64,000 bases of DNA from Clostridia bacterium (GCA_017407835.1 JAFQVV010000012.1:19010-83009), one strand, 5' to 3'; counted from the stretch's first letter, positions 4,601 to 25,910 are shown. Made by a program: numbers and translations. The notes: a model not told the origin generated them from the sequence alone.

Positions 4601-4888
4601 GGATTCAATCCTGATGGAATGATCAGACGCGAGGATGCTGTTGCTGCTATCTTCCTGGTTGCACAGAAGTTCCACAAGGTTTACTTCAACCAGCCCTACA
4701 GCATTACCTTCGCCGATGCAGGTGAAGTCAACTGGTGGGCACAGGTCGCAGTTTCCAGCTTCCAGCAGTTGGATATCCTGTCCGGGCATATTATCGACAG
4801 CGGCAACAACTTCCGCCCCGATGATCCCGCAACCCGTTCGGATATTGCAACCATTATCGCTCGCTACGCAATGCTTTATATGGACTGA
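1676..4888 (+). CDS. secreted SLH-anchored cell-wall protein with Trp-rich repeat modules and a Big_2-like domain (1070 aa)
   Basis: AGGAGAG RBS lies 7 nt upstream. Signal peptide MLKRVLASVLTVLMLLTVIPAASISA. Nine copies of a (D/N)xN..W-x5-6-W unit, two (Gly-Thr)n linkers, a Big_2-like segment (VVIWSSSDTDVATVDQNGVVTIVGVGRADIKV), a PVIPDT x3 linker and three C-terminal SLH repeats (YSDVSADAPYAEYIQYVV.., HFVDCQDKWFTSAVAWAYE.., FADAGEVNWWAQVAVSSFQ..). Confidence 0.8.
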   Translation: MLKRVLASVLTVLMLLTVIPAASISAATLPLYSQNLTYEYYMNDNNGVTWYLVFNNWYFKYGVSISDSTTDYLKLQSGISLPTSGTVYVADTKTPQALFQYSEAGGWQYKYSIGTSAGGSTILPGMGTTDSYIMIDNNSCYWRSTMGSWQYMKDNFWTTGTLDDYLADNDNKYPTSGTVFSSDGKTLIGYSTFNEETKKWSAVSTGGNMGGIVDSTIASYTIIDNRMVNWTCYSGVWICTLYVNNQPVTATVSDYYDYYSEYPQWGTAINSKNETVANCVFDETTKTWKYTTSGSQGGTGSLVYEYIVDNNNATWVTQNGEWKYASLSGGTLVYKGIVEYYLVYKTYPQTGRAMDANGNAVAEVVFDTTTLSWTIKGTTGIVGSYYLLDNNGERWYYANSSWIWASATTTNFILEYVMKYGYPFSGTVYTENGSVVGTYVFNTETNTWGSLSNSVVPDIGNGGGTGSGTGSGTGTNSNQGYACGTASNPNIVTSVYDVNNYLWTKNGTTWYSAHSSKYSFSNPAVYIDSTNRVWEMRDGRWVVNAYADAEDYIVIPSTSTDPNKLSTLVDTNTYTWTKSGNTWNSNAALYYTVTGTLPQYKAEDGTLWTLQNNVWVKGSGSTGTGTGTGTGTGTTTPSDSVYGYTTYVFDGKTYLVPNHTIELVPSPTTMPYKPDGYMWVNINNKYTLMTLEGDVYPIPTLYQLPTGYYYYPTGDAEQPWTIIGTGDFVKSTITDIELTDYPYKLEVGKSYQCKADVEATATNDIGTVVIWSSSDTDVATVDQNGVVTIVGVGRADIKVRAFMGFVEATIDIYGIESKEPSTPVIPDTPVIPDTPVVPDEPATTPVSEKYSDVSADAPYAEYIQYVVDNDIFKGMTDEYIDENGNTVLATFSPEGTMTRAQFYTVLARIAGYTDEELKAQYPTTHFVDCQDKWFTSAVAWAYETGLESGPGAYQVLDANGNPVYDENGSSVWVEGGFNPDGMIRREDAVAAIFLVAQKFHKVYFNQPYSITFADAGEVNWWAQVAVSSFQQLDILSGHIIDSGNNFRPDDPATRSDIATIIARYAMLYMD
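3065..3100 (+). repeat. in-frame (GGT ACN GGA AGY)-type Gly-Thr/Gly-Ser tandem repeat (linker 1 of the SLH protein)
   Basis: ggtacaggaagt ggtacaggaagc ggtacgggaacc encodes GTGSGTGSGTGT. Confidence 0.8.
3527..3577 (+). repeat. in-frame (GGT ACN)n Gly-Thr dipeptide tandem repeat (linker 2 of the SLH protein)
   Basis: ggttccggttct acc ggtaca ggtacc ggtaca ggtacc ggtacg ggaacc encodes GSGSTGTGTGTGTGTGT. Confidence 0.8.
4142..4195 (+). repeat. three tandem 18-bp repeats encoding PV(I/V)PD(T/E)
   Basis: cctgtcattcctgatacg / cctgttattcccgatacg / cctgtcgttcccgatgaa. This is the linker between the Big_2-like domain and the SLH repeats. Confidence 0.85.
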
Positions 4889-5601: not shown

Positions 5602-5622
5602 TACGACGAAATCAATTGTCGT

Positions 5623-5652
5623 GGGGCGCGCAGTTTGCGCGCCCCCTTTTTT
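5623..5652 (+). terminator. rho-independent terminator after hpf
   Basis: GC-rich stem ggggcgcgc / gcgcgcccc followed by cttttttat. Confidence 0.8.
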
Positions 5653-5755
5653 ATACGCGGACAATCTCTTTGACGGAAACAAAGCGCGAAACTTTACCAT
5701 TTTGCATAAATCTCACAAAATGCAGCCGATCAAATGAAAAATTGCAAATAAAGGG

Positions 5756-5784
5756 TTGATTTGTGGAGCGAAGTGTGATATAAT
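5756..5784 (+). promoter_or_regulatory. sigma-A-type promoter of asd
   Basis: TTGATT, 17-nt spacer, TATAAT, with an extended -10 TG (tgaTATAAT). Confidence 0.65.
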
Positions 5785-5873
5785 GCATCTATATTTCATC
5801 GTTCATGCGAAATGCGGAACGATTCACCTGTAATCAATAATAAAATTATATACAGAAAACGGAGTGAAGATTG

Positions 5874-6959
5874 ATGAACGCAAAGAAAAGAGTCGGTGTT
5901 GTTGGCGCAACGGGTATGGTCGGTCAGCGCTTTCTCACCCTGCTCGAAAACCATCCCTATTTTGAAGTAACTGCACTTGCAGCCAGCGCACGCTCGGCCG
6001 GCCGTACCTACGCAGACGCTGTAGGCGGACGGTGGAAAATGAAGACTCCCATGCCCGCGTGCTATGCCGATATGATTGTGCACGATGCCGCCAAGATCGA
6101 CGAAATGGCTGAGCTGGTGGATTTCGTTTTCTGCGCCGTGGATATGAAAAAGGACGAGGTTAAGGCGCTGGAGGAGGCATACGCCAAGGCTGAGATTCCC
6201 GTGGTTTCCAACAATTCTGCACACCGCTGGACTCCCGATGTGCCCATGGTGGTGCCGGAGCTCAACCCCGAGCACCTGGCTGTTATTGCAAGCCAGCGCA
6301 AGCGTCTGGGCACCAAGCGCGGCTTCATCGCCGTTAAGCCCAACTGCTCCATCCAGAGCTATGTCCCCATGCTCACCCCCCTGCTCAAGTACGAGCCTAC
6401 CGAGATCGTGGCTACCACCTACCAGGCTATTTCCGGTGCCGGCAAGACCTTCAACGAGTGGCCCGAGATGATCGACAACGTCATCCCCTTCATCGGCGGC
6501 GAGGAAGAGAAGAGCGAGCAGGAGCCCCTGCGCATTTGGGGTAAGGTGGAGAACGGCGAGATCGTCAAGGCTGCCGCCCCCGTGATCACCACCCAGTGCA
6601 TCCGCGTTCCCGTGACCGATGGTCATACTGCGGCTGTCTTTGTGAAGTTTGCCAAGAAGCCGACCAAGGAGGAGATCCTGGATGCCTGGAAGAACTTCGC
6701 CGGCCGTCCTCAGGAGCTGAAGCTCCCCCATGCACCCGAGCAGTTCATTACTTATTTTGAGGAAGATAACCGTCCTCAGGCCGCCATCGACCGCGACATT
6801 TACGGCGGTATGGGCGTTACCGCAGGTCGTCTCCGTGAGGATCCCGCAGGGCTTTACGACTACAAATTTGTGGGTCTCTCCCACAATACCCTCCGCGGTG
6901 CCGCAGGCGGTGCTGTGCTGATCGCAGAGCTGCTTTACGCCGAAGGCTACTTTGATTGA
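5874..6959 (+). CDS. asd: aspartate-semialdehyde dehydrogenase
   Basis: Starts KKRVGVVGATGMVGQRF (NAD(P) Rossmann), has the catalytic-Cys region (KPNCSIQ) and ends LSHNTLRGAAGGAVL. ATG at 5874 is preferred over the TTG at 5871 used by the ORF track (GGAG 9 nt upstream). Confidence 0.9.
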   Translation: MNAKKRVGVVGATGMVGQRFLTLLENHPYFEVTALAASARSAGRTYADAVGGRWKMKTPMPACYADMIVHDAAKIDEMAELVDFVFCAVDMKKDEVKALEEAYAKAEIPVVSNNSAHRWTPDVPMVVPELNPEHLAVIASQRKRLGTKRGFIAVKPNCSIQSYVPMLTPLLKYEPTEIVATTYQAISGAGKTFNEWPEMIDNVIPFIGGEEEKSEQEPLRIWGKVENGEIVKAAAPVITTQCIRVPVTDGHTAAVFVKFAKKPTKEEILDAWKNFAGRPQELKLPHAPEQFITYFEEDNRPQAAIDRDIYGGMGVTAGRLREDPAGLYDYKFVGLSHNTLRGAAGGAVLIAELLYAEGYFD

Positions 6960-6985
6960 TATCGTAAAATTAAGCATAATTTTTG

Positions 6986-7023
6986 ACAGCGAGGAAAACA
7001 AATCGTTTTCCTCGCTGTTTTTG
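6986..7023 (+). terminator. rho-independent terminator after asd
   Basis: acagcgaggaaaac-aaatc-gttttcctcgctgt followed by ttttt. Confidence 0.85.
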
Positions 7024-7101
7024 GCATGGGAATTGGTGAAATTGCACAAAAAGGAGGGGGCGATTTCTCTGATTTGACAGGAAAAAAGTCGCAAAGAATG
7101 C

Positions 7102-7130
7102 TTGCAATTTGGAAGGGTTTGCGGTATAAT
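7102..7130 (+). promoter_or_regulatory. sigma-A-type promoter of the EF-G paralogue
   Basis: TTGCAA, 17-nt spacer, TATAAT. Confidence 0.65.
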
Positions 7131-7246
7131 AAAATATGGTATCGTGATTTTGTACAGAACAAAATGAACGTTATCTTCGTTTATTATATTATTCTACAAG
7201 AAAGGATATTCTGCGAAGCGTGTTTCGCAGAATGGGTACGCACATC

Positions 7247-9313
7247 ATGGGAAAACAAGAAACGAAAAAGATTCGTAATGTCGCGCTTCTGGGCCACGGC
7301 GGCAGCGGTAAAACTTCGCTGGCTGAGGCAATGCTCTACATCAGCGACGGCACCGATCGTCTCGGAAAGACCCCGGATGGCAACACGGTGTGCGACTACG
7401 ACAGTGAAGAAATCAAGCGTGGCTTCTCGCTGCAGACAGCCATTGCCCCGATTAACTGGAAAGATGTTAAGATCAATGTCATTGACACCCCCGGTTATCT
7501 CGATTTCTCCGGTGAGGTTGCACAGGGCCTGCGTGTTGCAGACAGTGCAGTTATCGTGATCGACGGTAAGTCGGGTATCGAGGTTGGTACCGAGCTGGCT
7601 TGGGACTATGCCACTGAGGCCGGTATTCCGAAGGCTTTCTTTATCAATAAGTTTGACGACGGCGAGGCTCGCTTCCGCCGTGTGTTTGACCAGCTTCATG
7701 AGCGCTTCGGCGTGTCTGTCTGCCCCATCGTTATCCCGATGATCGACGGCGACACCGTTACCGCATTCCTGGATCTGATCGACATGAAGAGCTATACCTA
7801 CAACTCCAAGGGCGGCTACGGCGAGGCTGAGATTCCCTCCGCATTCGTTGCCGAGGCAGAGAAGTACCGCGAGGTGCTTTACGAGGCAATTGCTTCCACC
7901 GACGAGGCTCTGATGGAGAAGTTCTTCGGCGGTGAGGAGATCTCCCGCGAAGAAGCTGTGCTGGCTATCCATGAGGGTATCCTCCACGGCGCCATCGTTC
8001 CCGTTATCTGCGGTGCCGCAACCCGTCTGTGGGGCGTGGGCAACCTGCTGGATATCATCGACGAGTCTTTCCCCCGCCATACCGCCAAGGGAAGCGAGAA
8101 GATCGTTGTGGGCGATAAGATCGAAGAGCTGCCCATTGAGACCGATGGTACGCCGTCTATCTTCGTCTTCAAGACCATCGCTGACCCGTTCGTGGGTAAA
8201 ATGTCCTTCTTCAAGGTCATGGCAGGTGAGCTGAAGCGGGATACCATCCTCAAGAACATGACCTCCGGTCAGTCCGAGAAGCTGTCCCACATCTACGTCA
8301 TGAAGGGCAAGAAGCAGATGGAGGTTGAGCAGCTCAACTGCGGCGATATCGGTATGGTGGCTAAGCTGGTGAACACAAACACCAACGATACCCTGACTGC
8401 CGGCGGTGTGGTCCGCTATGCGCCCATCACCTATCCTCAGCCCTATATGAGCATGGCGGTTATGCCCGCAGCCAAGGGTGACGAGGACAAGATCTCGGGC
8501 GGTATCGCACGCCTGCTTGAGGAAGACCTCACCCTGAAGTTTGAGAACAACGCCGAGACCAAGCAGCTGGTGCTGTCGGGTATGGGTGATATGCATCTGG
8601 ATGTTACGGTTGCCAAGCTGAAGAGCCGCTCCAACGTCTCGGTTAAGCTGGTTGCTCCGAAGATCCCCTACCGTGAAACCATTACCAAGACCGTTCAGGT
8701 CGAAGGTAAGCATAAGAAGCAGTCGGGCGGTCACGGCCAGTACGGTCATGTTAAGATTACCTTCAAGCCCGGCGAGGCTGAGGGCCTGACCTTCACCGAG
8801 TCCACCGTGGGCGGTTCCGTACCGAAGAACTTCCATCCTGCTGTTGAGAAGGGCTTGCTTGAGGCCATGCAGAAGGGCGTTGCGGGTTATCCCGTTGTTC
8901 GCCTTGCCGCTGATCTGTACGACGGCTCCTACCACGACGTTGACTCCTCCGAGATGTCCTTCAAGATGGCTGCATCCCTTGCGTACAAGGAGTGCCTGAA
9001 GCAAGCGAAGCCGGTTATCCTTGAGCCGGTTGGCGCACTCTATGTCACCGTTCCCGAGTCCATGGTGGGTGACGTTATGGGCGATCTGAACAAGCGTCGC
9101 GGTCGCGTTATGGGTATGAATCCCGCTGAGAAGAAGGGCTACACCGTGGTCGAGGCTGAGGTGCCGAAGGCTGAGATGATGGACTACACCATCGCACTCC
9201 GCGCTTCCACTCAGGGCCGCGGAAGCTTCACGTATGAGTTCGTGCGCTATGAAGAGGTTCCCTCCAACGTGGCACAGAAGATCATTGCCGAGGCCGAAAA
9301 GGACGAGGACTAA
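7247..9313 (+). CDS. EF-G family translational GTPase paralogue
   Basis: G1 reads GHGGSGKT, where canonical EF-G has AHIDAGKT. G3 is DTPG and G4 is NKFD, followed by EF-G domains II-V (HGQYGHV.., EPV..V.VP..MGDVMGDLNKRRG). Start is uncertain among 7220 GTG, 7232 ATG and 7247 ATG; none has a good SD. Confidence 0.8.
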   Translation: MGKQETKKIRNVALLGHGGSGKTSLAEAMLYISDGTDRLGKTPDGNTVCDYDSEEIKRGFSLQTAIAPINWKDVKINVIDTPGYLDFSGEVAQGLRVADSAVIVIDGKSGIEVGTELAWDYATEAGIPKAFFINKFDDGEARFRRVFDQLHERFGVSVCPIVIPMIDGDTVTAFLDLIDMKSYTYNSKGGYGEAEIPSAFVAEAEKYREVLYEAIASTDEALMEKFFGGEEISREEAVLAIHEGILHGAIVPVICGAATRLWGVGNLLDIIDESFPRHTAKGSEKIVVGDKIEELPIETDGTPSIFVFKTIADPFVGKMSFFKVMAGELKRDTILKNMTSGQSEKLSHIYVMKGKKQMEVEQLNCGDIGMVAKLVNTNTNDTLTAGGVVRYAPITYPQPYMSMAVMPAAKGDEDKISGGIARLLEEDLTLKFENNAETKQLVLSGMGDMHLDVTVAKLKSRSNVSVKLVAPKIPYRETITKTVQVEGKHKKQSGGHGQYGHVKITFKPGEAEGLTFTESTVGGSVPKNFHPAVEKGLLEAMQKGVAGYPVVRLAADLYDGSYHDVDSSEMSFKMAASLAYKECLKQAKPVILEPVGALYVTVPESMVGDVMGDLNKRRGRVMGMNPAEKKGYTVVEAEVPKAEMMDYTIALRASTQGRGSFTYEFVRYEEVPSNVAQKIIAEAEKDED

Positions 9314-9365: not shown

Positions 9366-10214
9366 TCAGTTGAAGTATGGTTTGTTTCGATTGCTGCAGA
9401 AATAGGAAAAGGTATTCGGCCTGTCGATGATCTCTCGGGCAAAGATCAGCATGGCGAAGAAGGATGGGGTTGGTTTGAAGTTGTATACGGTCTGCAAGCC
9501 GTCGTTGATCTCGATCTGTGAAGTGCAGACCATATGGTACTTGGAGAGAACGGCAAGGATCCCATCAGCCTTTTCTCGGTCTATGCCCAGCTTTTGAATC
9601 AGCAGATCCGGGGTGAAGGCCTTTTTATGATCGCGGCTGTGGAGCAGAATGCAGGCATCGAATATGGCTTTGTCCGAGAGGTCGCGGAAGAGGGCAGGGT
9701 AGTCGATACCGTTGAAGAGGGCTGTATCGGTGTCCTTTGGCTCTGGGACGATGAGAAAATACTGCAGGCGGTTGCCGATGCCCATGTGGGTAAAGCCCTC
9801 ATTTTGCTGCATGGAGGAGTAATGCTCCACATCGGTTTTACCAATCTCTTTCTGATACTCTTCAACGCTTCCGATATCAATGAAGTGTCCGTGCGGCATC
9901 ATGGCCCGCTCCATATCCCAGCAAAAATTGAATACCCGGCGGAAATGTTCCTTCCGTGGCGTCTCCTGAATGCGTTTGATCAGCGCAGCCTGCAGTTCTC
10001 CGTTGTCGGGAGTTTCTCGCTCAAACAGCGTGTCGATGGAAACCGAAAAGAAATCTGCGATCTTGGGCAGAAGCTCGGTGTCGGGGAGACCGCCGTTCTC
10101 CCACTTGGAGACGGCTTGCGTGCTGACACCTACATAGCGGGCAAGCTCCTCCTGCTTGGCACCTTTTTCTTTTCGCAATGCTGCAATTTGTCTTCCCAGG
10201 GCTTGAATTTCCAT
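9366..10214 (-). CDS. XRE-family (HTH_3) transcriptional regulator with ~210-aa uncharacterised C-terminal domain
   Basis: ATG at 10214 is preceded by AAAAGGAGA. N-terminus LGRQIAALRKEKGAKQEELARYVGVSTQAVSKWENG is a Cro/C1-type HTH. The 122-codon upstream extension in the ORF track has no RBS and reads as non-protein-like. Confidence 0.75.
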   Translation of the reverse strand: MEIQALGRQIAALRKEKGAKQEELARYVGVSTQAVSKWENGGLPDTELLPKIADFFSVSIDTLFERETPDNGELQAALIKRIQETPRKEHFRRVFNFCWDMERAMMPHGHFIDIGSVEEYQKEIGKTDVEHYSSMQQNEGFTHMGIGNRLQYFLIVPEPKDTDTALFNGIDYPALFRDLSDKAIFDACILLHSRDHKKAFTPDLLIQKLGIDREKADGILAVLSKYHMVCTSQIEINDGLQTVYNFKPTPSFFAMLIFAREIIDRPNTFSYFCSNRNKPYFN

Positions 10215-10295: not shown

Positions 10296-10312
10296 TGGAG
10301 GTGGTTTTGATG

Positions 10313-10333
10313 CAATCAACCCCCGGTTGATTG
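10313..10333. promoter_or_regulatory. perfect 9-3-9 palindrome (candidate operator)
   Basis: caatcaacc-ccc-ggttgattg. It lies 18 nt upstream of the -35 of the XRE gene promoter and downstream of the small-protein terminator. Confidence 0.4.
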
Positions 10334-10352
10334 ACGGCGGCAGGCACATCGG

Positions 10353-10397
10353 ACAAAAACAGCGGTTGGGCGGCCGATCTCGGTCGCCGAACCGCTG
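10353..10397 (-). terminator. rho-independent terminator after the 112-aa protein gene
   Basis: On the minus strand: cagcggttcggcgaccgagatcggccgcccaaccgctg followed by tttttg. Confidence 0.7.
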
Positions 10398-10407
10398 GGG
10401 GCATCGT

Positions 10408-10746
10408 TTATTTTCGGTAATAGGTGTAGTATGCAATAATGGTGCGCTCCTCACCGCCGTGCTCGTAGTCGGGCGCGGTGATGATGACACCTTCAAGCGA
10501 CAGCAGCTCAGAAGCCCGCATTTCTTCCACACGGGTGCGCATGACGATATCGCCCGAGGAGAAAACAATAAATTCGCCATCCCGCAGACTCAGACAGCCG
10601 TCACGACCGATGATTTCATCCACATTATCCTTGCGCTCGGTACAGTATTTGATGTGCCGCCCGGCCAGGTGTGTCGCCATGTCTTCCTTGAAGCGGCGGC
10701 TGTTTTCATTTTTGGATTTGATACGTTTTTTGAAAAACTTGAACAT
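10408..10746 (-). CDS. hypothetical small protein (112 aa, basic N-terminus)
   Basis: ATG at 10746 has GGAG 7 nt upstream, and the gene has its own terminator downstream (10353-10397). No family recognised. It is divergent from the ABC module. Confidence 0.5.
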   Translation of the reverse strand: MFKFFKKRIKSKNENSRRFKEDMATHLAGRHIKYCTERKDNVDEIIGRDGCLSLRDGEFIVFSSGDIVMRTRVEEMRASELLSLEGVIITAPDYEHGGEERTIIAYYTYYRK

Positions 10747-10815
10747 AAAAGGCTCCGTTTTGTGCATGAAAATTTGTGAATGTATCTGATATTTTTGTGA
10801 CTTTTGCGATTTCTC

Positions 10816-10843
10816 TTGCTTTTTTCCCAGAATATGATATATT
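10816..10843 (+). promoter_or_regulatory. candidate sigma-A promoter for the ABC/DUF1854 module
   Basis: TTGCTT, 16-nt spacer, TATATT, with an extended -10 TG (tgaTATATT). This would give a ~150-nt leader. Confidence 0.4.
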
Positions 10844-10997
10844 ATATGAAACGTAGAAACACAGATGACCGATGATCGAATCGGATGCGTGATTTTGTGG
10901 GAAATATATATACAGTATACCATATGATGCGCATCCACTTCAAGGGGATTTGCAAAAAATGCCCGGAAAGTTTTGAAACAGGAAAGGATGTGTTGAT

Positions 10998-13334
10998 ATG
11001 CTGCCTTTGGATAAGTTGACCGAGCAGGCACGATGTGCGTTTGCCGATCACGACTGCAATCCTGAAGCGTTTGACGCCGTTCTGGTATTGGATATGGATC
11101 TGTCAGGTGATTTTGGCCGAACTTGGCTGGCACTTGACCGTATCCGAAAATGTGTGTACCGTTTTTGTGAAAATGACGGTGCTTTTGCGCAATTTTCGCT
11201 TGCGTTGACAGCGGAACCGTATGTGGACAATTTTACTTCCTCAAACAGACTGCTTGCCCACGAGCATCAAGTTCCCGCTCCCCCAAAAGGAGAACTTGAT
11301 GACAAAGCATATGAGAAGTCCTGCGAGGAATGGCGACGGGAAGGAAAGACCGTCACGATTGCCTATTGTACGAACGCCTGTAAACGCAAGCTTTTTGCTT
11401 TTGTTTATCTCTGGGAACGCTATGCCGCCGGTCAGGAAGTTGGGGAAGATGATCCGATTTTCGAGCAGTTCAACGCGAAGTGCCCCAAGTGCGGCACTGT
11501 TTACGCAGACCAGCAGCGGCGCATTTGTGCGCATTGCATCAAAAAAAGTGCGACCATGTTTCGCCTGCTTGCCTACTTCAAGCCCTTTAAGCTGCAGTTT
11601 ATCACTGTTATGCTTTGCCTGGTGGCGAGCGCGGCAATCTCTCTGCTGACGCCGATTATCAGCAACCAGATCTTCTACGATCAGGTTGTCGCCCCCCCGA
11701 AATTTATCGACGGCGTGCAGATTCAGGGCAAGCTGCATGAGATAAAGTGGGTATACATCATGGTCGGAATTTTGTTCGGGATGGCGGTGCTTTCGCTGGT
11801 GATCGGGATCATCCAAAACCGCGCAAATGCATATATGTCGACTCGCGTGACCAAGAACATGAAGAACGATCTTTTCCGTGCACTCCAGCACCTCTCGCTC
11901 TCTTATTTCAACCAAAATCCAACGGGACGTCTGATCAACCGCGTCAACTATGATGCCGTTAAGATCCGCTCCTTCTACATCGACGGTGTTCCGCATTTCA
12001 TCGTCAATATGCTCAATTTCATCGGCCTGACCGTTTTCCTGTTTTCGCTGAACTGGAAGCTGACGCTGATTGTATATATTCCCGTGCCGATTGTGGTTTG
12101 CATGTTCAAGTTCATGCTGCCCAAGCTTTGGCGGATGTACTCCAAACAGTGGCGGCGCTCGTCCTCCCTCAATGCTATGCTGGGGGATTCGCTCAACGGT
12201 ATCCGGGTGGTCAAGGCTTTTGCCAAAGAAGCGGAGGAAACCAACCGATTCTATCAGTACTCCGAGAAGCTCTACCACGCCAACCTGCAGACAAACCTCG
12301 TCCACTTGACGATTTTTCCGGTGATCAGCCTGCTAATCGGTATCTCTTCCCAGGCGATCTGGGGCTTTGGCGGTATTCTTGTCATGGATGAATACATGAC
12401 ATACGGCCAGTTTGCCACCTATCTCGGCTATATCGGCATGATCTTCGGCCCCTTGAATTTCTTTACCAACTTTACCAATATGCTCACCGATACCATCAAT
12501 TCCGCCGTCCGTATGTTCGAGACGCTGGATATGATTCCCGAGATCACCGACGCGCCCAACGCAGTGGAGCTGGATAGCATTGGGGGCGATATAATTTTTG
12601 ACCGTGTCGGGTTCCACTACAATCCCAACCGCCCCATCCTCAAGGATGTGTCGTTTACCATTCATGCAGGCGATCATGTGGGGCTGGTTGGGCACACGGG
12701 AAGCGGGAAGAGCACAATTGCCAATCTGATCACGCGTATGTATGACGTGATCAGCGGATCAATTTCTATCGATGGACACAATGTTAAGGATATCAAGGTT
12801 GATTCGCTTCGCCGCAATATTGCCATCGTGTCGCAGGAAATTTATCTCTTCCACGGTACCATTGCTGACAATATTCGATACGCTCGCCCCGATGCTTCAA
12901 TGGCGGAAGTGATTGACGCCGCGCGGGCGGCAAATGCGCATGATTTTATCTTGCGCCTGCCCGAGGGATACGAAACGATGGTTGGCATCGGCAGCCGTTC
13001 GCTCTCGGGCGGTGAGCGGCAGCGAATTTCGATTGCGCGCGCCCTTTTGATGAAGCCCTCGCTGCTGATCCTAGATGAAGCAACCGCGGCAATGGATACC
13101 GAAACCGAGCGGCTGATCAGCGATGCCATCGATAAGCTGATCGAAGGACGCACAACCATTACCATTGCCCACCGCCTCTCCACCCTGAAAAACTGCAATT
13201 ATCTGATGGCTATCGAGCATGGTGAGATTGCAGAACAGGGAACAGCCGAAGAGCTGATGGAAAAGAAGGGCGTGTATTACAAGCTCTACACCCTGCAGAA
13301 CGAACAGATGAAGAAGGTTATGGCAGGGCTTTGA
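10998..13334 (+). CDS. ABC exporter, fused permease/ATPase half-transporter with ~190-aa N-terminal zinc-ribbon extension
   Basis: 778 aa. Type-I exporter TMD, Walker A GHTGSGKST, signature LSGGERQR, Walker B LLILDEAT. N-terminal extension ends in CPKC-x11-CAHC (nt 11481-11537) just before TM1. Confidence 0.85.
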   Translation: MLPLDKLTEQARCAFADHDCNPEAFDAVLVLDMDLSGDFGRTWLALDRIRKCVYRFCENDGAFAQFSLALTAEPYVDNFTSSNRLLAHEHQVPAPPKGELDDKAYEKSCEEWRREGKTVTIAYCTNACKRKLFAFVYLWERYAAGQEVGEDDPIFEQFNAKCPKCGTVYADQQRRICAHCIKKSATMFRLLAYFKPFKLQFITVMLCLVASAAISLLTPIISNQIFYDQVVAPPKFIDGVQIQGKLHEIKWVYIMVGILFGMAVLSLVIGIIQNRANAYMSTRVTKNMKNDLFRALQHLSLSYFNQNPTGRLINRVNYDAVKIRSFYIDGVPHFIVNMLNFIGLTVFLFSLNWKLTLIVYIPVPIVVCMFKFMLPKLWRMYSKQWRRSSSLNAMLGDSLNGIRVVKAFAKEAEETNRFYQYSEKLYHANLQTNLVHLTIFPVISLLIGISSQAIWGFGGILVMDEYMTYGQFATYLGYIGMIFGPLNFFTNFTNMLTDTINSAVRMFETLDMIPEITDAPNAVELDSIGGDIIFDRVGFHYNPNRPILKDVSFTIHAGDHVGLVGHTGSGKSTIANLITRMYDVISGSISIDGHNVKDIKVDSLRRNIAIVSQEIYLFHGTIADNIRYARPDASMAEVIDAARAANAHDFILRLPEGYETMVGIGSRSLSGGERQRISIARALLMKPSLLILDEATAAMDTETERLISDAIDKLIEGRTTITIAHRLSTLKNCNYLMAIEHGEIAEQGTAEELMEKKGVYYKLYTLQNEQMKKVMAGL

Positions 13335-13399
13335 GTGTCTGTACCAATAAAGTTCAATCCTATTTAGACTACCTTCGCCTGTGAGGCAGAAAGGAAACG

Positions 13400-13987
13400 A
13401 TGATGTCTGAAGTCAAAACCAAAAATCCGGCTGCGGAGACCGATGAGGATGCCGCATTGTTTGAAAAACGCGAGTCGATTATGCTGACACCCGAAAATGC
13501 GGTTTTCTCCCGCTCGGAGGGCGGATTGATCTCGCTGGATGTGACGCGTGCCGACGGAGAGCGCGAGCATTTTGAGCGTGTGGTTGTCCTGCGCTCCTTC
13601 CCGATTACCGATCCCGATGAGTATATTGCCGTTCGTGAACCTGAGACGCGCAAGAGCCGCCGCGGTCATGAAATCGGGTTGATCGTCCATATCGGGATTT
13701 TTGATGAGAAAACGGTAGCGCTCTTGAACGAGGAGTTGGATCGCCGTTATTTCACCCCCGAGATACACCGCATCCTTTCGGTCAAGGAAAAGCTGGGGTA
13801 TTACTATTGGGATGTTGAGACATCGGCGGGGCACGTGAACTTTGTGCTCAACAATATTTCCTCCAATATTCGCATTCTTGAGGATGAACGCATCTTTATT
13901 TTCGATATCGACGGCAACTGTTTCCAAATCAGTGATGTATCCAAGCTGGATCGAAACAGCTATCGCAAGATTGAGATTTATCTGTAA
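13400..13987 (+). CDS. DUF1854-like soluble protein
   Basis: 195 aa with no TM segments. Pattern LRSFPITDPDEYIAV..EIGLI..LDRRYFTPEI..I..V..W.V.T..G...F.......I......R..I.D..GN...I.D...LD..S matches my memory of Pfam DUF1854 proteins found beside ABC exporters. Family call is from recollection only. Confidence 0.6.
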   Translation: MMSEVKTKNPAAETDEDAALFEKRESIMLTPENAVFSRSEGGLISLDVTRADGEREHFERVVVLRSFPITDPDEYIAVREPETRKSRRGHEIGLIVHIGIFDEKTVALLNEELDRRYFTPEIHRILSVKEKLGYYYWDVETSAGHVNFVLNNISSNIRILEDERIFIFDIDGNCFQISDVSKLDRNSYRKIEIYL

Positions 13988-14023
13988 CCTGATACCGATT
14001 ATGTCGGGAAAGGAGAGGATTGC

Positions 14024-16234
14024 ATGAAATTGATGTATGAGCTTCCCGAACGTGACGAGCGTGCCTTTGCGGCGGCGGTCGGTGAAGGGGAGAAGCGGAT
14101 GTACTGCCTTCCGTACAACATCGAGGTTGATCGGTTTGTATCGGGCTGGATGGTGTTTACCGATCAGTACATTTATAAAATTCTGGACGGCGAGCTGAAA
14201 GAAAAATTCAAGCTGTCCGAGCTCTCGGATTTTTCCACCGAAAATCTTTACGGCAGCTGCGCTTTCTATGCCAAAGAAAACGGAGTGAGCCGCCTGCTTT
14301 GCCGGTTTATTTCGGGGCGAAACCTGCCGCGCTATTCGGTGATGGTGAAAGCCTGCGAAATTCTGGCAGAGGGCGGCAGCCGTGAGCCGCTGACCAACAG
14401 CGAGCCCGAACGCTATTGCCCGCAATGCGGTCGTCCCTTTGTCCTGCACACCAAGATATGTCCTTTCTGTCAGGACAAAAAGGAGATATACCGCAAGCTC
14501 TGGGCAATGACAAAAGGCTTGCGCTTGATGATGCTTTTTCCGCTGATTGCGGCGGCACTGTCGGTTGTCTTCCGCTTTGTTGTTCCGGCAGTGCAGCGCC
14601 ATGCCATTGACCGATTTATTGAGCCGGCACTCGATATTGAGCGAGGGTCGATGGCGGAATTTTTGCTGATTGTTCTTGCCATTATTCTGCTCGATGTCTG
14701 TCATCGCGCCATTGATGTCATCAAACAGCGCATGGCCGCATATTCGGGCAACAAATTTACCCTCATGCTTCGCGCACTTCTCTTTGAAAAGATTCAAAAT
14801 CTGTCCATGTCGTCGGTTCAGCACAAATCGACGGGCGATTTGATGGGGCGCATCAACAACGATGTGTCGGTGGTGCAAAACTTTATCACAGGCAATCTGC
14901 CGACCTATTTTGCGCAAGCATTTTCCTTCTTGCTGGCCCTTGTGCTTCTGCTGTGTCTCAATCCATTGATGTGCCTGTTTGTCTTCATTCCGCTTCCTTT
15001 GACTGTTTTCATCATCGTACGGTTTTGGGATACGGTACGTCAGCGCAATATCCATGCATGGCTGATCACCAGACGAACCAATCGCCATCTGCAGGATATT
15101 CTCAACGGCATTCGCGTGGTGAAAAGCTTTGGCAGTGAAGAGCGAGAGATCGTACGCTTCGAAGAGCACACCGAACGCCAGGCCGCTCAGGACGAGTCCA
15201 ATGCCAAGCTGTTTGATACCGTCTTCCCGCTGCTTGGTTTTGCGCTTCGTCTGGGGAACTATATGATCATGCTCTACGGAAATCTCAAAGTGTTTGCGGG
15301 CACAATGAGCATCGGTGCACTCAATCAGTTCAATAGCTATGCATCCATCATCTACGAGCCGCTGATGCAGATTACTGCCATCCCCCGAAACATCTCTACC
15401 TTCTTCACCTCACTCAATAAGGTGTTTGAGATTCTCGAGGAAGAACCGGAGGTTGCCGATATCGAGCTGCCCATTGATATCGCTATTGAAGGAGATATCA
15501 GCATTCGCGATGTCACCTTCGGCTACGACAGCTATAATCCTGTTCTTGAGCACATCAATCTTGAGGTGAAGCAGGGAGAGATGGTTGGCATCGTCGGTCA
15601 CTCGGGCTGCGGCAAGACGACCTTGATCAATCTCCTGATGCGTCTCTATGATGTCAGTGAGGGCGAGATTCTGATTGATGATGTCAACATTAAGGATATT
15701 TCCCAGAATGCACTGCGCTCGCAGATCGGCGTTGTACTGCAGGAGACACATCTCTTCGCCGGTTCAATCCGAGACAACATTCGCTATTCCAAGCCCCATG
15801 CGACCAACGAAGAGGTTATTGCAGCCGCACGGCTGGCAAACGCACATGACTTTATCATCAATCTCCCCGAGGGGTATAATACCATGGTGGGAGAGAAGGG
15901 CTATTCGCTCTCGGGCGGCGAGCGTCAGCGGATTGCCATTGCGCGCGCCTTGATTCATAATCCCCGCATTCTCATCCTTGATGAGGCAACCGCGGCACTC
16001 GATACCGAGACTGAGAAGTTGATTCAAGATGCCATCAACAAGCTGACGCACAACCGCACTACTTTCGCCATTGCGCACCGTCTTTCCACCCTGCGCAATG
16101 CCGACAAGCTGCTTGTGCTTGATCGGGGCAAGGTTGCTGAGTTCGGTACCCACGCAGAATTGCTTGAAGCGCGGGGGATCTACTACAAGCTGGTGATGGC
16201 GCAGCAGCGCGCCGCACTCCAGAAACAAATGTAA
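14024..16234 (+). CDS. ABC exporter, fused permease/ATPase half-transporter with ~155-aa N-terminal zinc-ribbon extension
   Basis: 736 aa. AAAGGAGAGG RBS. Walker A GHSGCGKTT, signature LSGGERQR, Walker B ILILDEAT. N-terminal extension ends in CPQC-x10-CPFC (nt 14417-14470) and looks paralogous to that of the upstream ABC gene. Confidence 0.85.
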   Translation: MKLMYELPERDERAFAAAVGEGEKRMYCLPYNIEVDRFVSGWMVFTDQYIYKILDGELKEKFKLSELSDFSTENLYGSCAFYAKENGVSRLLCRFISGRNLPRYSVMVKACEILAEGGSREPLTNSEPERYCPQCGRPFVLHTKICPFCQDKKEIYRKLWAMTKGLRLMMLFPLIAAALSVVFRFVVPAVQRHAIDRFIEPALDIERGSMAEFLLIVLAIILLDVCHRAIDVIKQRMAAYSGNKFTLMLRALLFEKIQNLSMSSVQHKSTGDLMGRINNDVSVVQNFITGNLPTYFAQAFSFLLALVLLLCLNPLMCLFVFIPLPLTVFIIVRFWDTVRQRNIHAWLITRRTNRHLQDILNGIRVVKSFGSEEREIVRFEEHTERQAAQDESNAKLFDTVFPLLGFALRLGNYMIMLYGNLKVFAGTMSIGALNQFNSYASIIYEPLMQITAIPRNISTFFTSLNKVFEILEEEPEVADIELPIDIAIEGDISIRDVTFGYDSYNPVLEHINLEVKQGEMVGIVGHSGCGKTTLINLLMRLYDVSEGEILIDDVNIKDISQNALRSQIGVVLQETHLFAGSIRDNIRYSKPHATNEEVIAAARLANAHDFIINLPEGYNTMVGEKGYSLSGGERQRIAIARALIHNPRILILDEATAALDTETEKLIQDAINKLTHNRTTFAIAHRLSTLRNADKLLVLDRGKVAEFGTHAELLEARGIYYKLVMAQQRAALQKQM

Positions 16235-16246
16235 ATTCAACCATAA

Positions 16247-16280
16247 AGGGTGCCGTATATTGCGCGGCACCCCTTTGCAT
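16247..16280 (+). terminator. weak terminator-like hairpin after the second ABC gene
   Basis: gggtgccg-tatattgcg-cggcaccc followed by only ctttg, a poor U-tract. Confidence 0.45.
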
Positions 16281-16359
16281 CCATGGATGGGGAAACTTTG
16301 CATATCTGCGTAACAAAGTGAGATTTTTTCGGTTCTGATTGGTGAGAGGGGGAGAGACA

Positions 16360-16899
16360 ATGGAAGATGCTGTGATCATCAGCCTGTACGAAGCACGCGA
16401 CGAAGCGGCCATTGAAGCAACCGCCGCGCAGTACGGCAAGCTCTGCATCGGGATTGCGCAGGGGATTTTGGGCAATCGCGAGGACGCCGAGGAGTGTGCA
16501 TCTGATGCATATTTGCGCTTATGGAATGCTATCCCACCCGCCAAGCCGAAGTCGCTGTCGGCATATCTTGGGCGCATTGTGCGTAATCTTGCGCTCAACG
16601 CGGCAGAGAAGAAGCGGGCACAGAAACGGGGCGGGGAGGTGCTTCCCCTGCTTGAAGAGCTGGGGGAGTGTCTGCCGCAGAATCAGGGCGACGGGGAGAT
16701 CGGGAAAATTATTGACCGTTTTCTTGCCGCCGAGACCGAGGAAAATCGCCGTATTTTTCTGCGCCGCTATTGGTACTGTGACAGTACCCGACAGATTGCC
16801 CATCGCATAGGGTTGCGTGAGGGGGCAGTCAGGCTTCGTTTGCACCGTATGCGCGAGCGTCTGCGGCTTGAATTGGAGAAGGAGGAGATTGATATATGA
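16360..16899 (+). CDS. sigma-70 family RNA polymerase sigma factor (ECF-like, group 4)
   Basis: 179 aa. Region 2 (DAEECASDAYLRLWN) and region 4 HTH (STRQIAHRIGLREGAVRLRLHRMRERL). ATG at 16360 follows GAGAGGGGGAGAG; the track start at 16339 is a TTG. Confidence 0.8.
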   Translation: MEDAVIISLYEARDEAAIEATAAQYGKLCIGIAQGILGNREDAEECASDAYLRLWNAIPPAKPKSLSAYLGRIVRNLALNAAEKKRAQKRGGEVLPLLEELGECLPQNQGDGEIGKIIDRFLAAETEENRRIFLRRYWYCDSTRQIAHRIGLREGAVRLRLHRMRERLRLELEKEEIDI

Positions 16900-17972
16900 C
16901 GAAAGAAAGCTTGTTTTGTGCCATCGGCGAGGTGCGCGATGCGTGGATCGCCGATGCTGACGAAGGCACACTGAGTCGTGTCTCGCGCCCCCGACGTATG
17001 GGAAGGCTGGCGCGGCGTTTGGGGACCGTTGCCGCGTGTTTGGTGCTTTTGCTGACGGGGGGATATCATTTTGCCTGCTGGTATTTTCCACCGGGCGCAC
17101 ATGAGCAGGTGCTGCGGATCATACCGGTGGTTTTGTATGACCGTTTCATGCAATATGAACTTGTCCGCTTGGGCGATGGGCAAGCGGCGATGCTGCCCTA
17201 TCAGCGGGGTGAATATGTAGGCAATTTGCAGGGGCGTGAGGTCTGGCATCTGCATGGACGGGAGGATTATGCCGAGCTGATTTTCTACGACGGAGAGAAA
17301 TGGCAGCTGGGGCGATTCAATCAATATAGCGGGCTTGCCGAGGGCTGGCAGTATGATCCCGCAGAGGATGCGGACTGGGCGTTTTCCACCCTGCTCATGC
17401 CTGAGGAATGGGTGAGGATCGATACCTCACCTTATACACTGGAAGAGGTGCTGCGCAATATTTACGGTGTAGAGCATGCCGAGGATATTGCATGGGTGCG
17501 TTTCGAGAAGAGCGGTATCGACAACACCCGGATCGGCCAATCGGTAAACGTGGAGACCGTCACCCTGCGAGATGACGATGAAATCGCTCTGGTGTGGGAT
17601 ATTTTGGTCAGTTTGACACCCATAGGTCATTACGATGAACGCCCTCAGCCCAGCGTAGCGCTGCCCGAGGATGTGCGGGCCGTGCAGGTTGTTCGGGGCG
17701 TGACGGTCAGCTTCAAAAACGGCACGGTGCTGGAGTTTGAGTATAATCCCGCAGGCGGCGAGGACTGCGCCCTCTTCTATCGGATCGAAGGGTACAATTA
17801 TTACTATCTCACCGCCCAACAGAATCATACGCTGATCGAGCTTGCGGGCATCAGTTTCGAGCCAACCCCCATTCCCGAGACAACGCCGCCCCGGGGCGTG
17901 GATGCCAACGAAACAACAGCGCGTCCGCCCGAGACTGCCATCTCTGCTGCTCCCCAGACGGTGGAGGAATAA
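16896..17972 (+). CDS. membrane-anchored protein coupled to the sigma factor (putative anti-sigma factor)
   Basis: ATGA overlap with the sigma gene. Short cytoplasmic N-terminus (IGEVRDAWIADADEG), one TM (VAACLVLLLTGGYHF), a ~260-aa outside domain and a Pro/Thr-rich C-terminus. No zf-HC2 motif seen. Function is inferred from position only. Confidence 0.5.
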   Translation: MTKESLFCAIGEVRDAWIADADEGTLSRVSRPRRMGRLARRLGTVAACLVLLLTGGYHFACWYFPPGAHEQVLRIIPVVLYDRFMQYELVRLGDGQAAMLPYQRGEYVGNLQGREVWHLHGREDYAELIFYDGEKWQLGRFNQYSGLAEGWQYDPAEDADWAFSTLLMPEEWVRIDTSPYTLEEVLRNIYGVEHAEDIAWVRFEKSGIDNTRIGQSVNVETVTLRDDDEIALVWDILVSLTPIGHYDERPQPSVALPEDVRAVQVVRGVTVSFKNGTVLEFEYNPAGGEDCALFYRIEGYNYYYLTAQQNHTLIELAGISFEPTPIPETTPPRGVDANETTARPPETAISAAPQTVEE

Positions 17973-22312: not shown

Positions 22313-23815
22313 TTACAGCGGTGCGCGCAGTTTTGCTGCGCACTCATGCAGGATGGCGCGCTCGTCAAAGGGAACTTTTTCCCCGCAGATGAGCTGATAA
22401 TTTTCGTGCCCCTTGCCGGCGAGCAGAATGATATCACCCGGACGTGCGCCGTATACAGCGGTATGGATAGCATCACGGCGGTCGGGCAAGATCATAAACG
22501 GCGCCCCATTGGGGGTGAATGCCTGCGCAATGTCGGCGATAATGGCCTCGGGATCTTCAAAATCAGGATTGTCGGAGGTGAGAATGGCAAGATCGCAGAG
22601 TTCGTTTGCAACAGCGCCAAGCTCCGGGCGGCGCATTTGTGTTCTGCCGCCCACCGATCCGAACAGGCAAATCAGCCGCTCGGGCGAATAGCAGCGCAGA
22701 GTTTCCAGCGCGGCACGAAGACTCACGCCGTTGTGCGCATAGTCAATGAGGAAGGTGACATCGGGCAGAATATCAACCGATTCAAAACGCCCCTTGATGG
22801 CAATCCCCGACAGCGCTTGTGCAATGTCAGCGAGCGAAAGCCCCAAGCGCAGTCCGACTGCGGCGGCACAGAGTGCGTTGTGGACATTGAACTCTCCCGG
22901 CAGGGGAAGGGAAAAGGCAATCTCCTCGCTGCCATGAATGCAGACAAATTCAACGCCGAGACGACTGCCGTGTCGGAAGAGGGAAATGTCACGGGCAAAC
23001 AGGTCTGCGTCGTATGCGACCGAGCAGAGCATACGCTCGGCATCGCTTCCGTCGATCATTTGCTCAGTGGCAGGATCATCGGCGTTTGCAATGATGCACT
23101 CGGCACCGTAATCGGTGAAGAGGGAGTGCTTGCAGGCGCGGTAGTGCTCGAAAGTGGGGTGCTCGACCCCGCCGATGTGATCGTGGGAGAGATTGGTGAA
23201 AATGCAAATCGGGAATTTCATTCCCAGCACTCGGCGCAGGTAAAGCGCCTGGGAGGACACCTCAAGGGCAACCACCTTCACACCCGCGTCCGCCATTTTG
23301 CGCAGATAGTAGTGCAGTTCGCAGCTCTCGGGGGTGGTGTTGACGGTGGGATAAAAGTGCCCGCAGAATTGTACGCCGTTGGAGCCGATGTAGCCCGCAG
23401 GGATGCCGTTTTCATCCAGTATATGGCGGATGAGCAGAGCGGTGGTCGTTTTGCCCTTGGTTCCCGTAATGCCGATGACGGTCATCTCACGCGCAGGATA
23501 GCCGTAGAAGGCGGCGGACAGCTCGGCCAGCGCGGCACGGCTGTCGGTGACGGTGATGATCAGCGCATCCTCGGGCAGATCGAGGGGACGCTCGGCAACA
23601 AATGCACGGCAGCCCTGCAGATATGCCTTCTGCGCATAGGTGTGACCGTCCTGCACTGCGCCGCGAATGCAGACGAAGAGAGCCCCTGCTCCTGTTTTTC
23701 GCGAATCGGGGCTGAGCACATCAATGGGGGATCCGGCTTGCGTCTCTGTCATGGATGGGACTTGGGTGAGATAGACGGGGGAGATGGCACTTATCAGTTG
23801 GGAGAGTGTAATCAT
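22313..23815 (-). CDS. murE: UDP-N-acetylmuramoyl-L-alanyl-D-glutamate--diamino-acid ligase (MurE)
   Basis: Mur ligase P-loop GITGTKGKTTT, and DYAHN. The position of the DNPR specificity motif reads DNPD (nt 22562-22573). ATGA overlap with the upstream racemase gene. Confidence 0.85.
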   Translation of the reverse strand: MITLSQLISAISPVYLTQVPSMTETQAGSPIDVLSPDSRKTGAGALFVCIRGAVQDGHTYAQKAYLQGCRAFVAERPLDLPEDALIITVTDSRAALAELSAAFYGYPAREMTVIGITGTKGKTTTALLIRHILDENGIPAGYIGSNGVQFCGHFYPTVNTTPESCELHYYLRKMADAGVKVVALEVSSQALYLRRVLGMKFPICIFTNLSHDHIGGVEHPTFEHYRACKHSLFTDYGAECIIANADDPATEQMIDGSDAERMLCSVAYDADLFARDISLFRHGSRLGVEFVCIHGSEEIAFSLPLPGEFNVHNALCAAAVGLRLGLSLADIAQALSGIAIKGRFESVDILPDVTFLIDYAHNGVSLRAALETLRCYSPERLICLFGSVGGRTQMRRPELGAVANELCDLAILTSDNPDFEDPEAIIADIAQAFTPNGAPFMILPDRRDAIHTAVYGARPGDIILLAGKGHENYQLICGEKVPFDERAILHECAAKLRAPL

Positions 23816-24540
23816 TGCGCAGCCTCCGCAAAATCTCGGTCGAAGCCGACAGGCGTTTTGCCGCAGGTTAAAATCGAGCGGTAAGCCAGTGCGTCGAGCG
23901 AGTCAAAATAAGGTGAGGTGAGTCCCGCATCCCGGCGGAGAAGGGAGAGCTCGGTGCAGCCGAGCACCAGTCGATCACATCCTGCGTCAAGCAGGCGTGC
24001 CGAGAGGGCAGAAAATGCGGTAAGATCGGGCGATTTCCCTTGCTTGATCGAGGAATAAATCAGCTCGCTGAGCACATCCTGCTCGGTGGGGGAGGGGAGG
24101 ACACATTCCAGCCCGAATTGCTCACCCACCTGTGCATAACCGCCTGCCGCGGCAGTTCCCGCGGTGGCAAGCAGACCAAACTTCTTTACCCCGATTGCGG
24201 CGAGGGAACGTACAGTTTCGTAGATAATGTTGATGATCGGCACAGGGAGTGCAGCGGCAAGCGCATCGTAGAAATAATGTGCCGTGTTGCAGGGAATGGC
24301 GATTACGTCAGCACCTGCCGCCACCAAATGCTCGGCATCTGCCAGCATATAGGGCAGAGGATCTTCGGTCGATTGACCGAGAATGAAAGCGGTACGGTCC
24401 GGCGTGGTCGCACTGCTGGACAGAATGAGATCAAGATGATCCTGATCGCACGAAGCCTCGGTGTGACGCGTCAGCAGTTCATAGAAATATACCGATGCCA
24501 TCGGTCCGAGTCCGCCCAGAACGCCCAGCTTTTTTGCCAT
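23812..24540 (-). CDS. aspartate/glutamate racemase family protein (probable aspartate racemase)
   Basis: LGVLGGLGPMAS.. and ..IPCNTAH.. / ..LGCTE.. are the two catalytic-Cys motifs of PF01177. ATG at 24540 has GGGGTGG 5 nt upstream; the track start at 24549 is a GTG. Confidence 0.8.
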   Translation of the reverse strand: MAKKLGVLGGLGPMASVYFYELLTRHTEASCDQDHLDLILSSSATTPDRTAFILGQSTEDPLPYMLADAEHLVAAGADVIAIPCNTAHYFYDALAAALPVPIINIIYETVRSLAAIGVKKFGLLATAGTAAAGGYAQVGEQFGLECVLPSPTEQDVLSELIYSSIKQGKSPDLTAFSALSARLLDAGCDRLVLGCTELSLLRRDAGLTSPYFDSLDALAYRSILTCGKTPVGFDRDFAEAAQ

Positions 24541-24553
24541 AACAGCCACCCCT

Positions 24554-25777: not shown

Positions 25778-25852
25778 AATCTATGTCCTTTTGCTCTAAC
25801 ATATTTACCAAAACCAAAATCAAGTCGGTTTGTCGGAAAGTTTTTGAAGGTT

Positions 25853-25884
25853 CCAAGGGGACTTTTTTCAAAAAGTCCCCTTGG
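25853..25884 (-). other. perfect 14-15 bp hairpin between asnB and the ATP-grasp gene, without a U-tract
   Basis: ccaaggggactttt-ttca-aaaagtccccttgg. On the coding (minus) strand the 3' flank is aaccttcaaaaac, so it is not a canonical terminator. Confidence 0.5.
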
Positions 25885-25910
25885 CAGGGTACGGGGTAGC
25901 GCCTCGCCCA

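Follow-up and report, generated by a model that had tools for sequence, protein, structure and literature searches.

A DUF1854-linked pair of ABC half-transporters in uncultured gut Clostridia, related to the cphA-linked exporters

What is a soluble protein of the DUF1854 family doing between the genes for two ATP-binding cassette (ABC) half-transporters? The question is posed by positions 10998-16234 of a 64 000-nucleotide stretch of DNA (GCA_017407835.1, JAFQVV010000012.1:19010-83009; hereafter the window) from a Clostridia bacterium, the host being an uncultured gut Oscillospiraceae bacterium. Here three plus-strand genes, which we call ABC1, DUF1854 and ABC2, follow one another closely, and an earlier note on this DNA, made by a model from the sequence alone, singled out the triad as the best candidate for an undescribed system. 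We find it to be a heterodimer-type form, without a linked cphA, of a catalogued, biochemically unstudied family, and we argue below that the DUF1854 protein is probably the third component of the exporter.

Gene order and the transporter core

The first gene, ABC1 (10998-13334; 778 amino acids), encodes a half-transporter composed of a predicted PH-like extension, a four-cysteine (Cys4) ribbon, an exporter domain with six transmembrane (TM) segments and a nucleotide-binding domain (NBD). ABC2 (14024-16234; 736 amino acids) has the same architecture, and between the two lies the gene for the DUF1854 protein (13400-13987; 195 amino acids; PF08909). All three are open reading frames (ORFs) on the plus strand, separated in the ORF list by 65 nt (ABC1-DUF1854) and 36 nt (DUF1854-ABC2), lengths and gaps that agree exactly with those first proposed, and the ABC1 start, MLPLD, is kept in orthologs.

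To sample synteny, a DUF1854 alignment was scanned against one genome per species; relatives were found in 263 genomes, and the best 80 loci were examined. All 80 come from uncultured Clostridia or Oscillospiraceae of the rumen and gut, the closest being L001 and L002, in which the DUF1854 protein is ~89% identical to that of the window. The order ABC1-DUF1854-ABC2 on a single strand is found, wherever the contig allows, in 80/80 loci, with both N-terminal extensions recognisable and with a median gap of 31 nt between DUF1854 and ABC2. This conservation of gene order exceeds chance, and the synteny in related genomes by which the earlier note's idea of a system stood or fell is thus borne out. 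Clustering of all ORFs flanking the triad at the 80 loci yielded no further gene that is universally conserved beside it. We consider it probable that the triad forms one operon encoding a three-component exporter.

Two observations concern individual loci in this sample. In L001 the ABC1 ortholog (5618-7953) is split into overlapping ORFs (5618-7153 and 7150-7953), whether through a frameshift or through faulty assembly. L012 and L013 are contigs of the same metagenome-assembled genome (RGIG3888) and carry near-identical triad copies, through bin redundancy or a recent duplication.

Both ABC proteins are half-transporters of type I (ABCB/MsbA-like), with Pfam matches far above the cut-offs to ABC_membrane (PF00664; residues 202-486 in ABC1 and 174-446 in ABC2) and ABC_tran (PF00005; residues 548-697 and 508-657, respectively). 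TM288 and Sav1866 are among their best bacterial matches in a PDB sequence search. The domains and the gene order together support the view, already put forward in the earlier note, of a heterodimer-type pair bracketing the DUF1854 protein. The Walker A motif, the catalytic Glu of Walker B, the Q-loop, LSGGERQR, LILDEATA and the H-loop His reach 90% conservation or more among each protein's 71 orthologs, and the nucleotide-binding sites of ABC1 and ABC2 are both fully canonical. The heterodimers TM287/288, BmrCD and TmrAB are likewise encoded by two adjacent half-transporter genes with ABC_membrane and ABC_tran domains, but exporters of the TM287/288 and BmrCD type have one degenerate ATP site, whereas here both NBDs keep the catalytic Glu, the H-loop His and LSGGERQR, a point of difference from many heterodimeric exporters of Gram-positive bacteria. 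TM287/288-type exporters also differ in having neither an N-terminal cytosolic domain nor a soluble partner gene between the half-transporters. Median identity across loci is 79-82% for the NBDs and 58-67% for the TM domains.

The two ABC proteins are 35% identical, which makes them as distant from each other as either is from an ABC protein of Ralstonia (see below), and are anciently duplicated paralogs. How old the duplication is can be judged from three genomes (L041, L048 and L068) in which a second, divergent ABC-DUF1854-ABC triad lies a few kb from the first (L041 12588-16581, L048 8613-12615 and L068 11639-16514, all on the minus strand). These second triads, with ribbons in both ABC genes and a DUF1854 gene of their own, are 38-52% identical to the first. 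Because the ABC1-like partner in them is closest to ABC1 (41%) and the ABC2-like partner to ABC2 (40-42%), the ABC duplication is older than the divergence of the two triad subfamilies.

Cytosolic extensions and the DUF1854 protein

Pfam finds nothing above threshold in the first ~195 residues of ABC1 or the first ~165 of ABC2, no bPH family matches the extensions, and no ABC chain returned by the PDB sequence search covers them, the matches beginning at residue 173 or later. What can be read directly from the sequence is a Cys4 motif, two CxxC pairs 10-12 residues apart, which is present in the window proteins, their orthologs, the second triads and Ralstonia. It takes the form CPKC-x11-CAHC at residues 162-180 of ABC1 (11481-11537) and CPQC-x10-CPFC at residues 132-149 of ABC2 (14417-14470), exactly as the earlier note had given them, and among the 71 orthologs of either protein the cysteine pairs are conserved to 90% or more. 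The ABC1 motif resembles Pfam Zn_ribbon_3 below threshold (E 8e-4) and that of ABC2 several Pfam zinc-ribbon families, again all below threshold, a pattern that had been anticipated; both are predicted zinc ribbons. Hydropathy places the start of TM1 at about residue 199 of ABC1 and 169 of ABC2, so that the ribbons end ~18-20 residues before it and not ~10, as had been thought.

Are the two extensions related to one another? Pairwise BLASTP aligned the ribbon alone (E 0.013), and profiles were therefore needed. With hhalign, extension 1 (residues 1-195) and extension 2 (residues 1-160) match at 95.3% (E 2e-8) over 150 colinear columns, in the very register in which the earlier note had compared them as paralogs. 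When the ribbon was left out the register was unchanged and the match was not significant (E 0.15); the ribbon thus supplies most of the statistical support for homology. For the PH-like part, paralogy is supported by the colinearity and by a fold model, beyond what sequence statistics provide.

The fold model is that of the ABC2 extension, which AlphaFold2 predicts with a pLDDT of 85.8 from 19 sequences, and >90 over residues 1-110. It consists of a helix (9-18), seven strands (25-95), a second helix (97-115), the ribbon, and a short amphipathic helix (154-163) that separates the ribbon from TM1. In a Foldseek search against the PDB the top 50 matches are all PH, PTB or GLUE domains with a probability of 1.0, among them the PH domain of GRK2 (E 5e-4) and, from bacteria, that of 3dcx (TM-score 0.69, rmsd 3.6). 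The seven-stranded beta-sandwich with its C-terminal helix cap is held in common with bacterial PH domains (DUF1696, 3dcx), from which ABC2 differs in that the PH-like domain is fused to a transporter and followed by a zinc ribbon. A PH-like fold, guessed at in the earlier note, is thus supported by modelling for residues 1-116 of ABC2 (14024-14371) and, through homology to these, for residues 1-155 of ABC1 (10998-11462), which carry an insertion of ~25 residues.

These PH-like heads are acidic (pI 4.7-5.3) and differ in their conservation, the median identity across loci being 39% for the ABC1 extension, the fastest-evolving part, and 55% for that of ABC2. Word-indexed homolog searches with the extensions gave mainly contig-truncated fragments. 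An exhaustive profile search of 1.84 billion representatives returned only 294 clusters at E <=1e-3, in which the match is always N-terminal and the full-length proteins are of 712-810 amino acids; the extension family is a small one, of a single architecture.

Cytosolic N-terminal domains that recruit cargo or regulate the pump occur in other ABC proteins, i.e. the C39-like domain of HlyB, the C39 peptidase of PCAT, the siderophore-interaction domain (SID) of IrtA and the FHA domains of Rv1747. ABC1 and ABC2 share with these the principle of an extra cytosolic domain fused before TM1, but the fold differs, their heads being PH-like with a zinc ribbon. Pfam gives no C39 (Peptidase_C39), SID or FHA match in the extensions, and the PH-like heads set the pair apart from the PCAT/HlyB type.

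PH domains classically bind phosphoinositide-type lipids, and the triad could accordingly be imagined as an MsbA-like flippase that exports an envelope lipid, a glycolipid or a lipid-linked precursor, its heads binding lipid head groups and the DUF1854 protein handling lipid. MsbA models are indeed the next-best NCBIfam matches of the two ABC proteins (446 and 413 bits), although these scores lie far under the cut-offs and amount to generic exporter similarity. The module, with its variable neighbours, resembles a stand-alone housekeeping unit, and mutants of relatives have pleiotropic stress and motility phenotypes (bioRxiv 10.1101/072470). Yet acidic heads are poorly suited to binding anionic lipids, and no lipid-synthesis gene is linked to the triad; lipid export strikes us as improbable.

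The middle protein proved to be what the earlier note had suggested, matching PF08909 over profile positions 1-128 of 130 (E 1.2e-39; 135.6 bits against a gathering threshold of 26.8). It is soluble, has no TM segment and is acidic (pI 5.0). Its AlphaFold2 model (pLDDT 85.4, from 54 sequences) has a disordered N-terminal tail followed by two halves (34-116 and 121-192), each a beta-sandwich plus helix. Foldseek gave nothing at E <=1e-3, and its best match, to Rtt106 with its tandem PH domains (E 5e-3, probability 0.87, TM-score 0.23), is no more than a hint from the model that DUF1854 may be a tandem-PH protein. A PDB sequence search found no relative of DUF1854. We also considered DUF1854 as a relative of the extensions, or of a 112-amino-acid protein encoded upstream of the triad (see below), and rejected this, as hhalign found no similarity.

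Across loci the DUF1854 protein has a median identity of 62-65%, which is higher than that of either head, as would befit a part engaged in several fixed contacts. Such conservation would suit a regulatory role, in which the PH-like heads and DUF1854 together form a cytosolic sensor or brake on the ATPase that answers a metabolite or protein signal. Parallels exist in the C-terminal domains of MalK, MetN and ModC and in the FHA modules of Rv1747. The variable neighbourhood of the triad, with no linked cargo gene found at the loci, is in keeping with this, as is the occurrence of MalK regulatory domains among the low-ranked Foldseek matches of DUF1854 (probability ~0.2). However, the MalK matches are not significant, no ligand-binding motif was recognised in these proteins, and the cofitness with polymer synthetases in beta-proteobacteria, described below, fits a role in a pathway equally well. 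We think a sensor or brake unlikely.

The cphA-linked relatives and a model for the exporter

The closest described relatives are the cphA-linked exporters of beta-proteobacteria. The best NCBIfam matches are to NF052233 ('cyanophycin metabolism-associated ABC transporter'; a 766-position profile to which ABC2 aligns from residue 7) for the ABC proteins and to NF052234 ('cyanophycin metabolism-associated DUF1854 family protein') for the middle one. Both are equivalog models, and the window proteins score below their cut-offs, at 548.5 (ABC1) and 508.8 bits (ABC2) against 880 for NF052233 and at 89.5 bits against 150 for NF052234.

A locus on a Ralstonia chromid, with the order cphA, cphA, ABC (768 amino acids), DUF1854 (156 amino acids), allows the two systems to be compared. 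The extension of the Ralstonia ABC protein contains LQLDLD..FTQGWLVVTNRRL and a CPTC-x10-CPQC ribbon, and the protein matches the window extension-2 profile in hhalign at 95.2% (E 2.7e-8). Because it carries the same extension, we take the extension to be an ancestral, family-defining feature rather than a Clostridial novelty. In both systems a DUF1854 gene stands immediately downstream of an exporter gene with a PH-like motif and a Cys4 ribbon. The cphA-linked system, however, has one ABC gene, presumed to yield a homodimer, whereas the window has two diverged ABC genes bracketing DUF1854; cphA/cphA' adjoin the former, and no cphA is linked to the latter. Full-length identity of the Ralstonia ABC protein is 33% to ABC1 and to ABC2 alike, and the two DUF1854 proteins are 32% identical, the Clostridial one having an N-terminus ~40 residues longer.

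Price et al. found that in Acidovorax and Cupriavidus DUF1854 is cofit with an ABC gene as well as with cphA/cphA', noted that it is fused to an ABC protein in some genomes, and proposed from these fitness data that it is a subunit of an amino-acid-polymer exporter (bioRxiv 10.1101/072470). Theirs was the only work treating DUF1854 that our literature search found, and the same search turned up no account of a PH-like/zinc-ribbon ABC exporter. To call the triad an undescribed system is an overstatement, since the pairing of extension and DUF1854 is already present in the cphA-linked exporter, is covered by NF052233 and NF052234, and had been given a proposed role by Price et al.

The reading that we favour, and regard as probable, is that of a three-component ATP-driven exporter in which DUF1854 contacts the heads, the NBDs or both. 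ABC1 and ABC2, each of which bears its PH-like head and Cys4 ribbon immediately ahead of the elbow helix and TM1, would pair as a heterodimeric type-I (ABCB/MsbA-like) exporter with both ATP sites hydrolysing. DUF1854, a soluble and acidic protein, would be a dedicated cytosolic third subunit, placed under the transporter against both PH-like heads and/or the NBDs, where it could pass a substrate made in the cytoplasm on to the pump or couple the availability of that substrate to ATPase activity. The weakest step is the cargo, which by analogy would most likely be a non-ribosomal peptide-like polymer or another envelope-destined molecule made by an unlinked gene; the beta-proteobacterial relatives, which suggest a peptide-like polymer, are the only basis for it. 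A more specific version, in which the PH-like/ribbon heads and the two-lobed DUF1854 form a cytosolic basket that captures a cytoplasmically made, non-ribosomal peptide-like polymer or an envelope precursor and feeds it into a fully active heterodimer, is put forward tentatively, and we hold it to be doubtful; it would be a cargo-adaptor mechanism as yet undescribed among type-I ABC exporters.

Several results weigh against an exporter of this kind. The likeness of DUF1854 to tandem PH domains comes from one weak Foldseek match, and hhalign detects no internal repeat between its two halves. Because the window proteins fall below the NCBIfam equivalog cut-offs, function is not simply transferable to them from the cphA-linked system. 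Finally, tblastn with two Ralstonia CphA proteins against the 64-kb window and the 80 loci (1.1 Mb) matched only MurE, and with no cphA or candidate synthetase found locally the analogy with a polymer cargo is left without local support. A nearby cyanophycin synthetase was thus considered and rejected, the single match in the window being the murE gene at 22313-23815 (minus strand), beside a racemase gene; the remaining large ORFs of the window, when scanned with Pfam, gave nothing related to cyanophycin synthetase.

Until now the function of DUF1854-linked exporters has been a matter of a genetic hint only. To this we add that the family-defining N-terminal module is a predicted PH-like domain with a zinc ribbon, that DUF1854 is modelled as a two-lobed beta protein, and that a duplicated, heterodimer-type form with two canonical ATP sites is conserved among uncultured Clostridia of the gut and rumen, at least 263 species-level genomes having it. 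As this Clostridial form has no linked cphA, the label 'cyanophycin metabolism-associated' is weakened for the family as a whole. If the heads and DUF1854 do act as a cargo adaptor or gate, they would embody an accessory principle new to type-I ABC exporters, and the triad could point to an unrecognised exported product of abundant rumen and gut Clostridia; a basket, if real, would be a mechanism common to gut Oscillospiraceae and the beta-proteobacterial cphA/cphA' systems.

Flanking DNA and neighbouring genes

The earlier note had given the three genes a shared candidate promoter and a hairpin at their end. Upstream of ABC1, the block TTGCTT-16-TGaTATATT (10816-10843, plus strand), with an extended -10, varies little or not at all among the four closest loci (L001-L004), in contrast to the intergenic DNA around it, and is our candidate promoter for the triad. 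A second block conserved in the same loci, AGTATACCATAT (10913-10925), holds a minus-strand TATACT -10 directed towards the gene for the 112-amino-acid protein, and the two blocks suggest, from their sequence, divergent promoters with overlapping 5' leaders. Downstream, 14 nt past the ABC2 stop, a GC-rich 9-bp hairpin (16248-16272, plus strand; -22.5 kcal/mol, z = -2.0) is possibly a terminator without a T-tract. Consensus scans for promoters and terminators performed at chance level and did not flag the block at 10816-10843. Rfam gave no riboswitch or leader RNA match at E <=1 over 10300-16500.

The 112-amino-acid protein (MFKFFKKRIKSKNENS...YYTYYRK) is basic, belongs to no known family, and is encoded divergently from ABC1 on the minus strand (10408-10746, with an alternative start at 10767); Pfam, NCBIfam and PDB sequence searches gave no match to it. 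It is found upstream of ABC1 in 36 of the 61 genome loci with enough flank; in 33 of them it is divergent and adjacent, with 210-400 nt between it and the start of ABC1, and in the other three the distance is 1.1-2.2 kb. Conversely, of 51 metagenome loci of the small protein, 25 have the ABC1 extension divergently upstream, the rest having varied neighbours. It is therefore a frequent neighbour of the triad, and its membership in the module is uncertain.

Could this small protein be the pump's cargo, or a fourth subunit? Its recurrence upstream of ABC1 and the promoter-like blocks conserved in the shared intergenic region would speak for such a role, in which it would loosely resemble DdE and DdF, the PH-domain proteins (YdbS/YdbT-type) that are needed for ABC-dependent export of the leaderless enterocin DD14 and so give PH-domain proteins a precedent in peptide export (PMC8657885). 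The linkage, however, is not obligate in either direction, and elsewhere the small protein stands beside unrelated genes, e.g. a YfhO-like one. Unlike a bacteriocin, it is well conserved (median 54%) and lacks a leader; the Ralstonia locus has no copy of it, and neither the extensions nor DUF1854 show any detectable similarity to it. We judge either role to be very unlikely.

An XRE regulator gene (9366-10211, minus strand), which the earlier note had joined with the small-protein gene as an adjacent pair, recurs in L001 and L002 only. Directly downstream of the triad lie genes for a sigma factor of the extracytoplasmic function (ECF) type (16339-16899, plus strand) and for a 358-amino-acid protein with no Pfam match, likely an anti-sigma factor (16896-17972, plus strand; 4-nt overlap with the sigma gene). 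The XRE regulator and the sigma/anti-sigma pair are conserved in the closest relatives only, and were for this reason rejected as parts of the module. An anti-phage defence function for the triad was likewise rejected, as PADLOC matched generic ABC ATPase domains only.

The murE gene belongs to a minus-strand gene run (22313-27761) that may build or modify the peptidoglycan stem peptide. The other members of the run are an amino-acid racemase gene of the Asp/Glu type (23812-24549), an asparagine synthase gene (25911-27761) and, next to both of these, the gene for an ATP-grasp-like protein (24554-25777) whose family matches are only weak. On the other side of the triad an EF-G family GTPase (7220-9313, plus strand) passes the cut-off of one EF-G subfamily model, scores below that of the EF-G equivalog TIGR00484 and may be an additional EF-G paralog; on the opposite strand its gene is overlapped by a longer ORF, which is spurious. 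Two further genes are features of the host cell envelope: one encodes a 1070-amino-acid protein with SLH and Big_2 domains (1676-4888, plus strand) and the other a 938-amino-acid YfhO membrane protein (38436-41252, minus strand).

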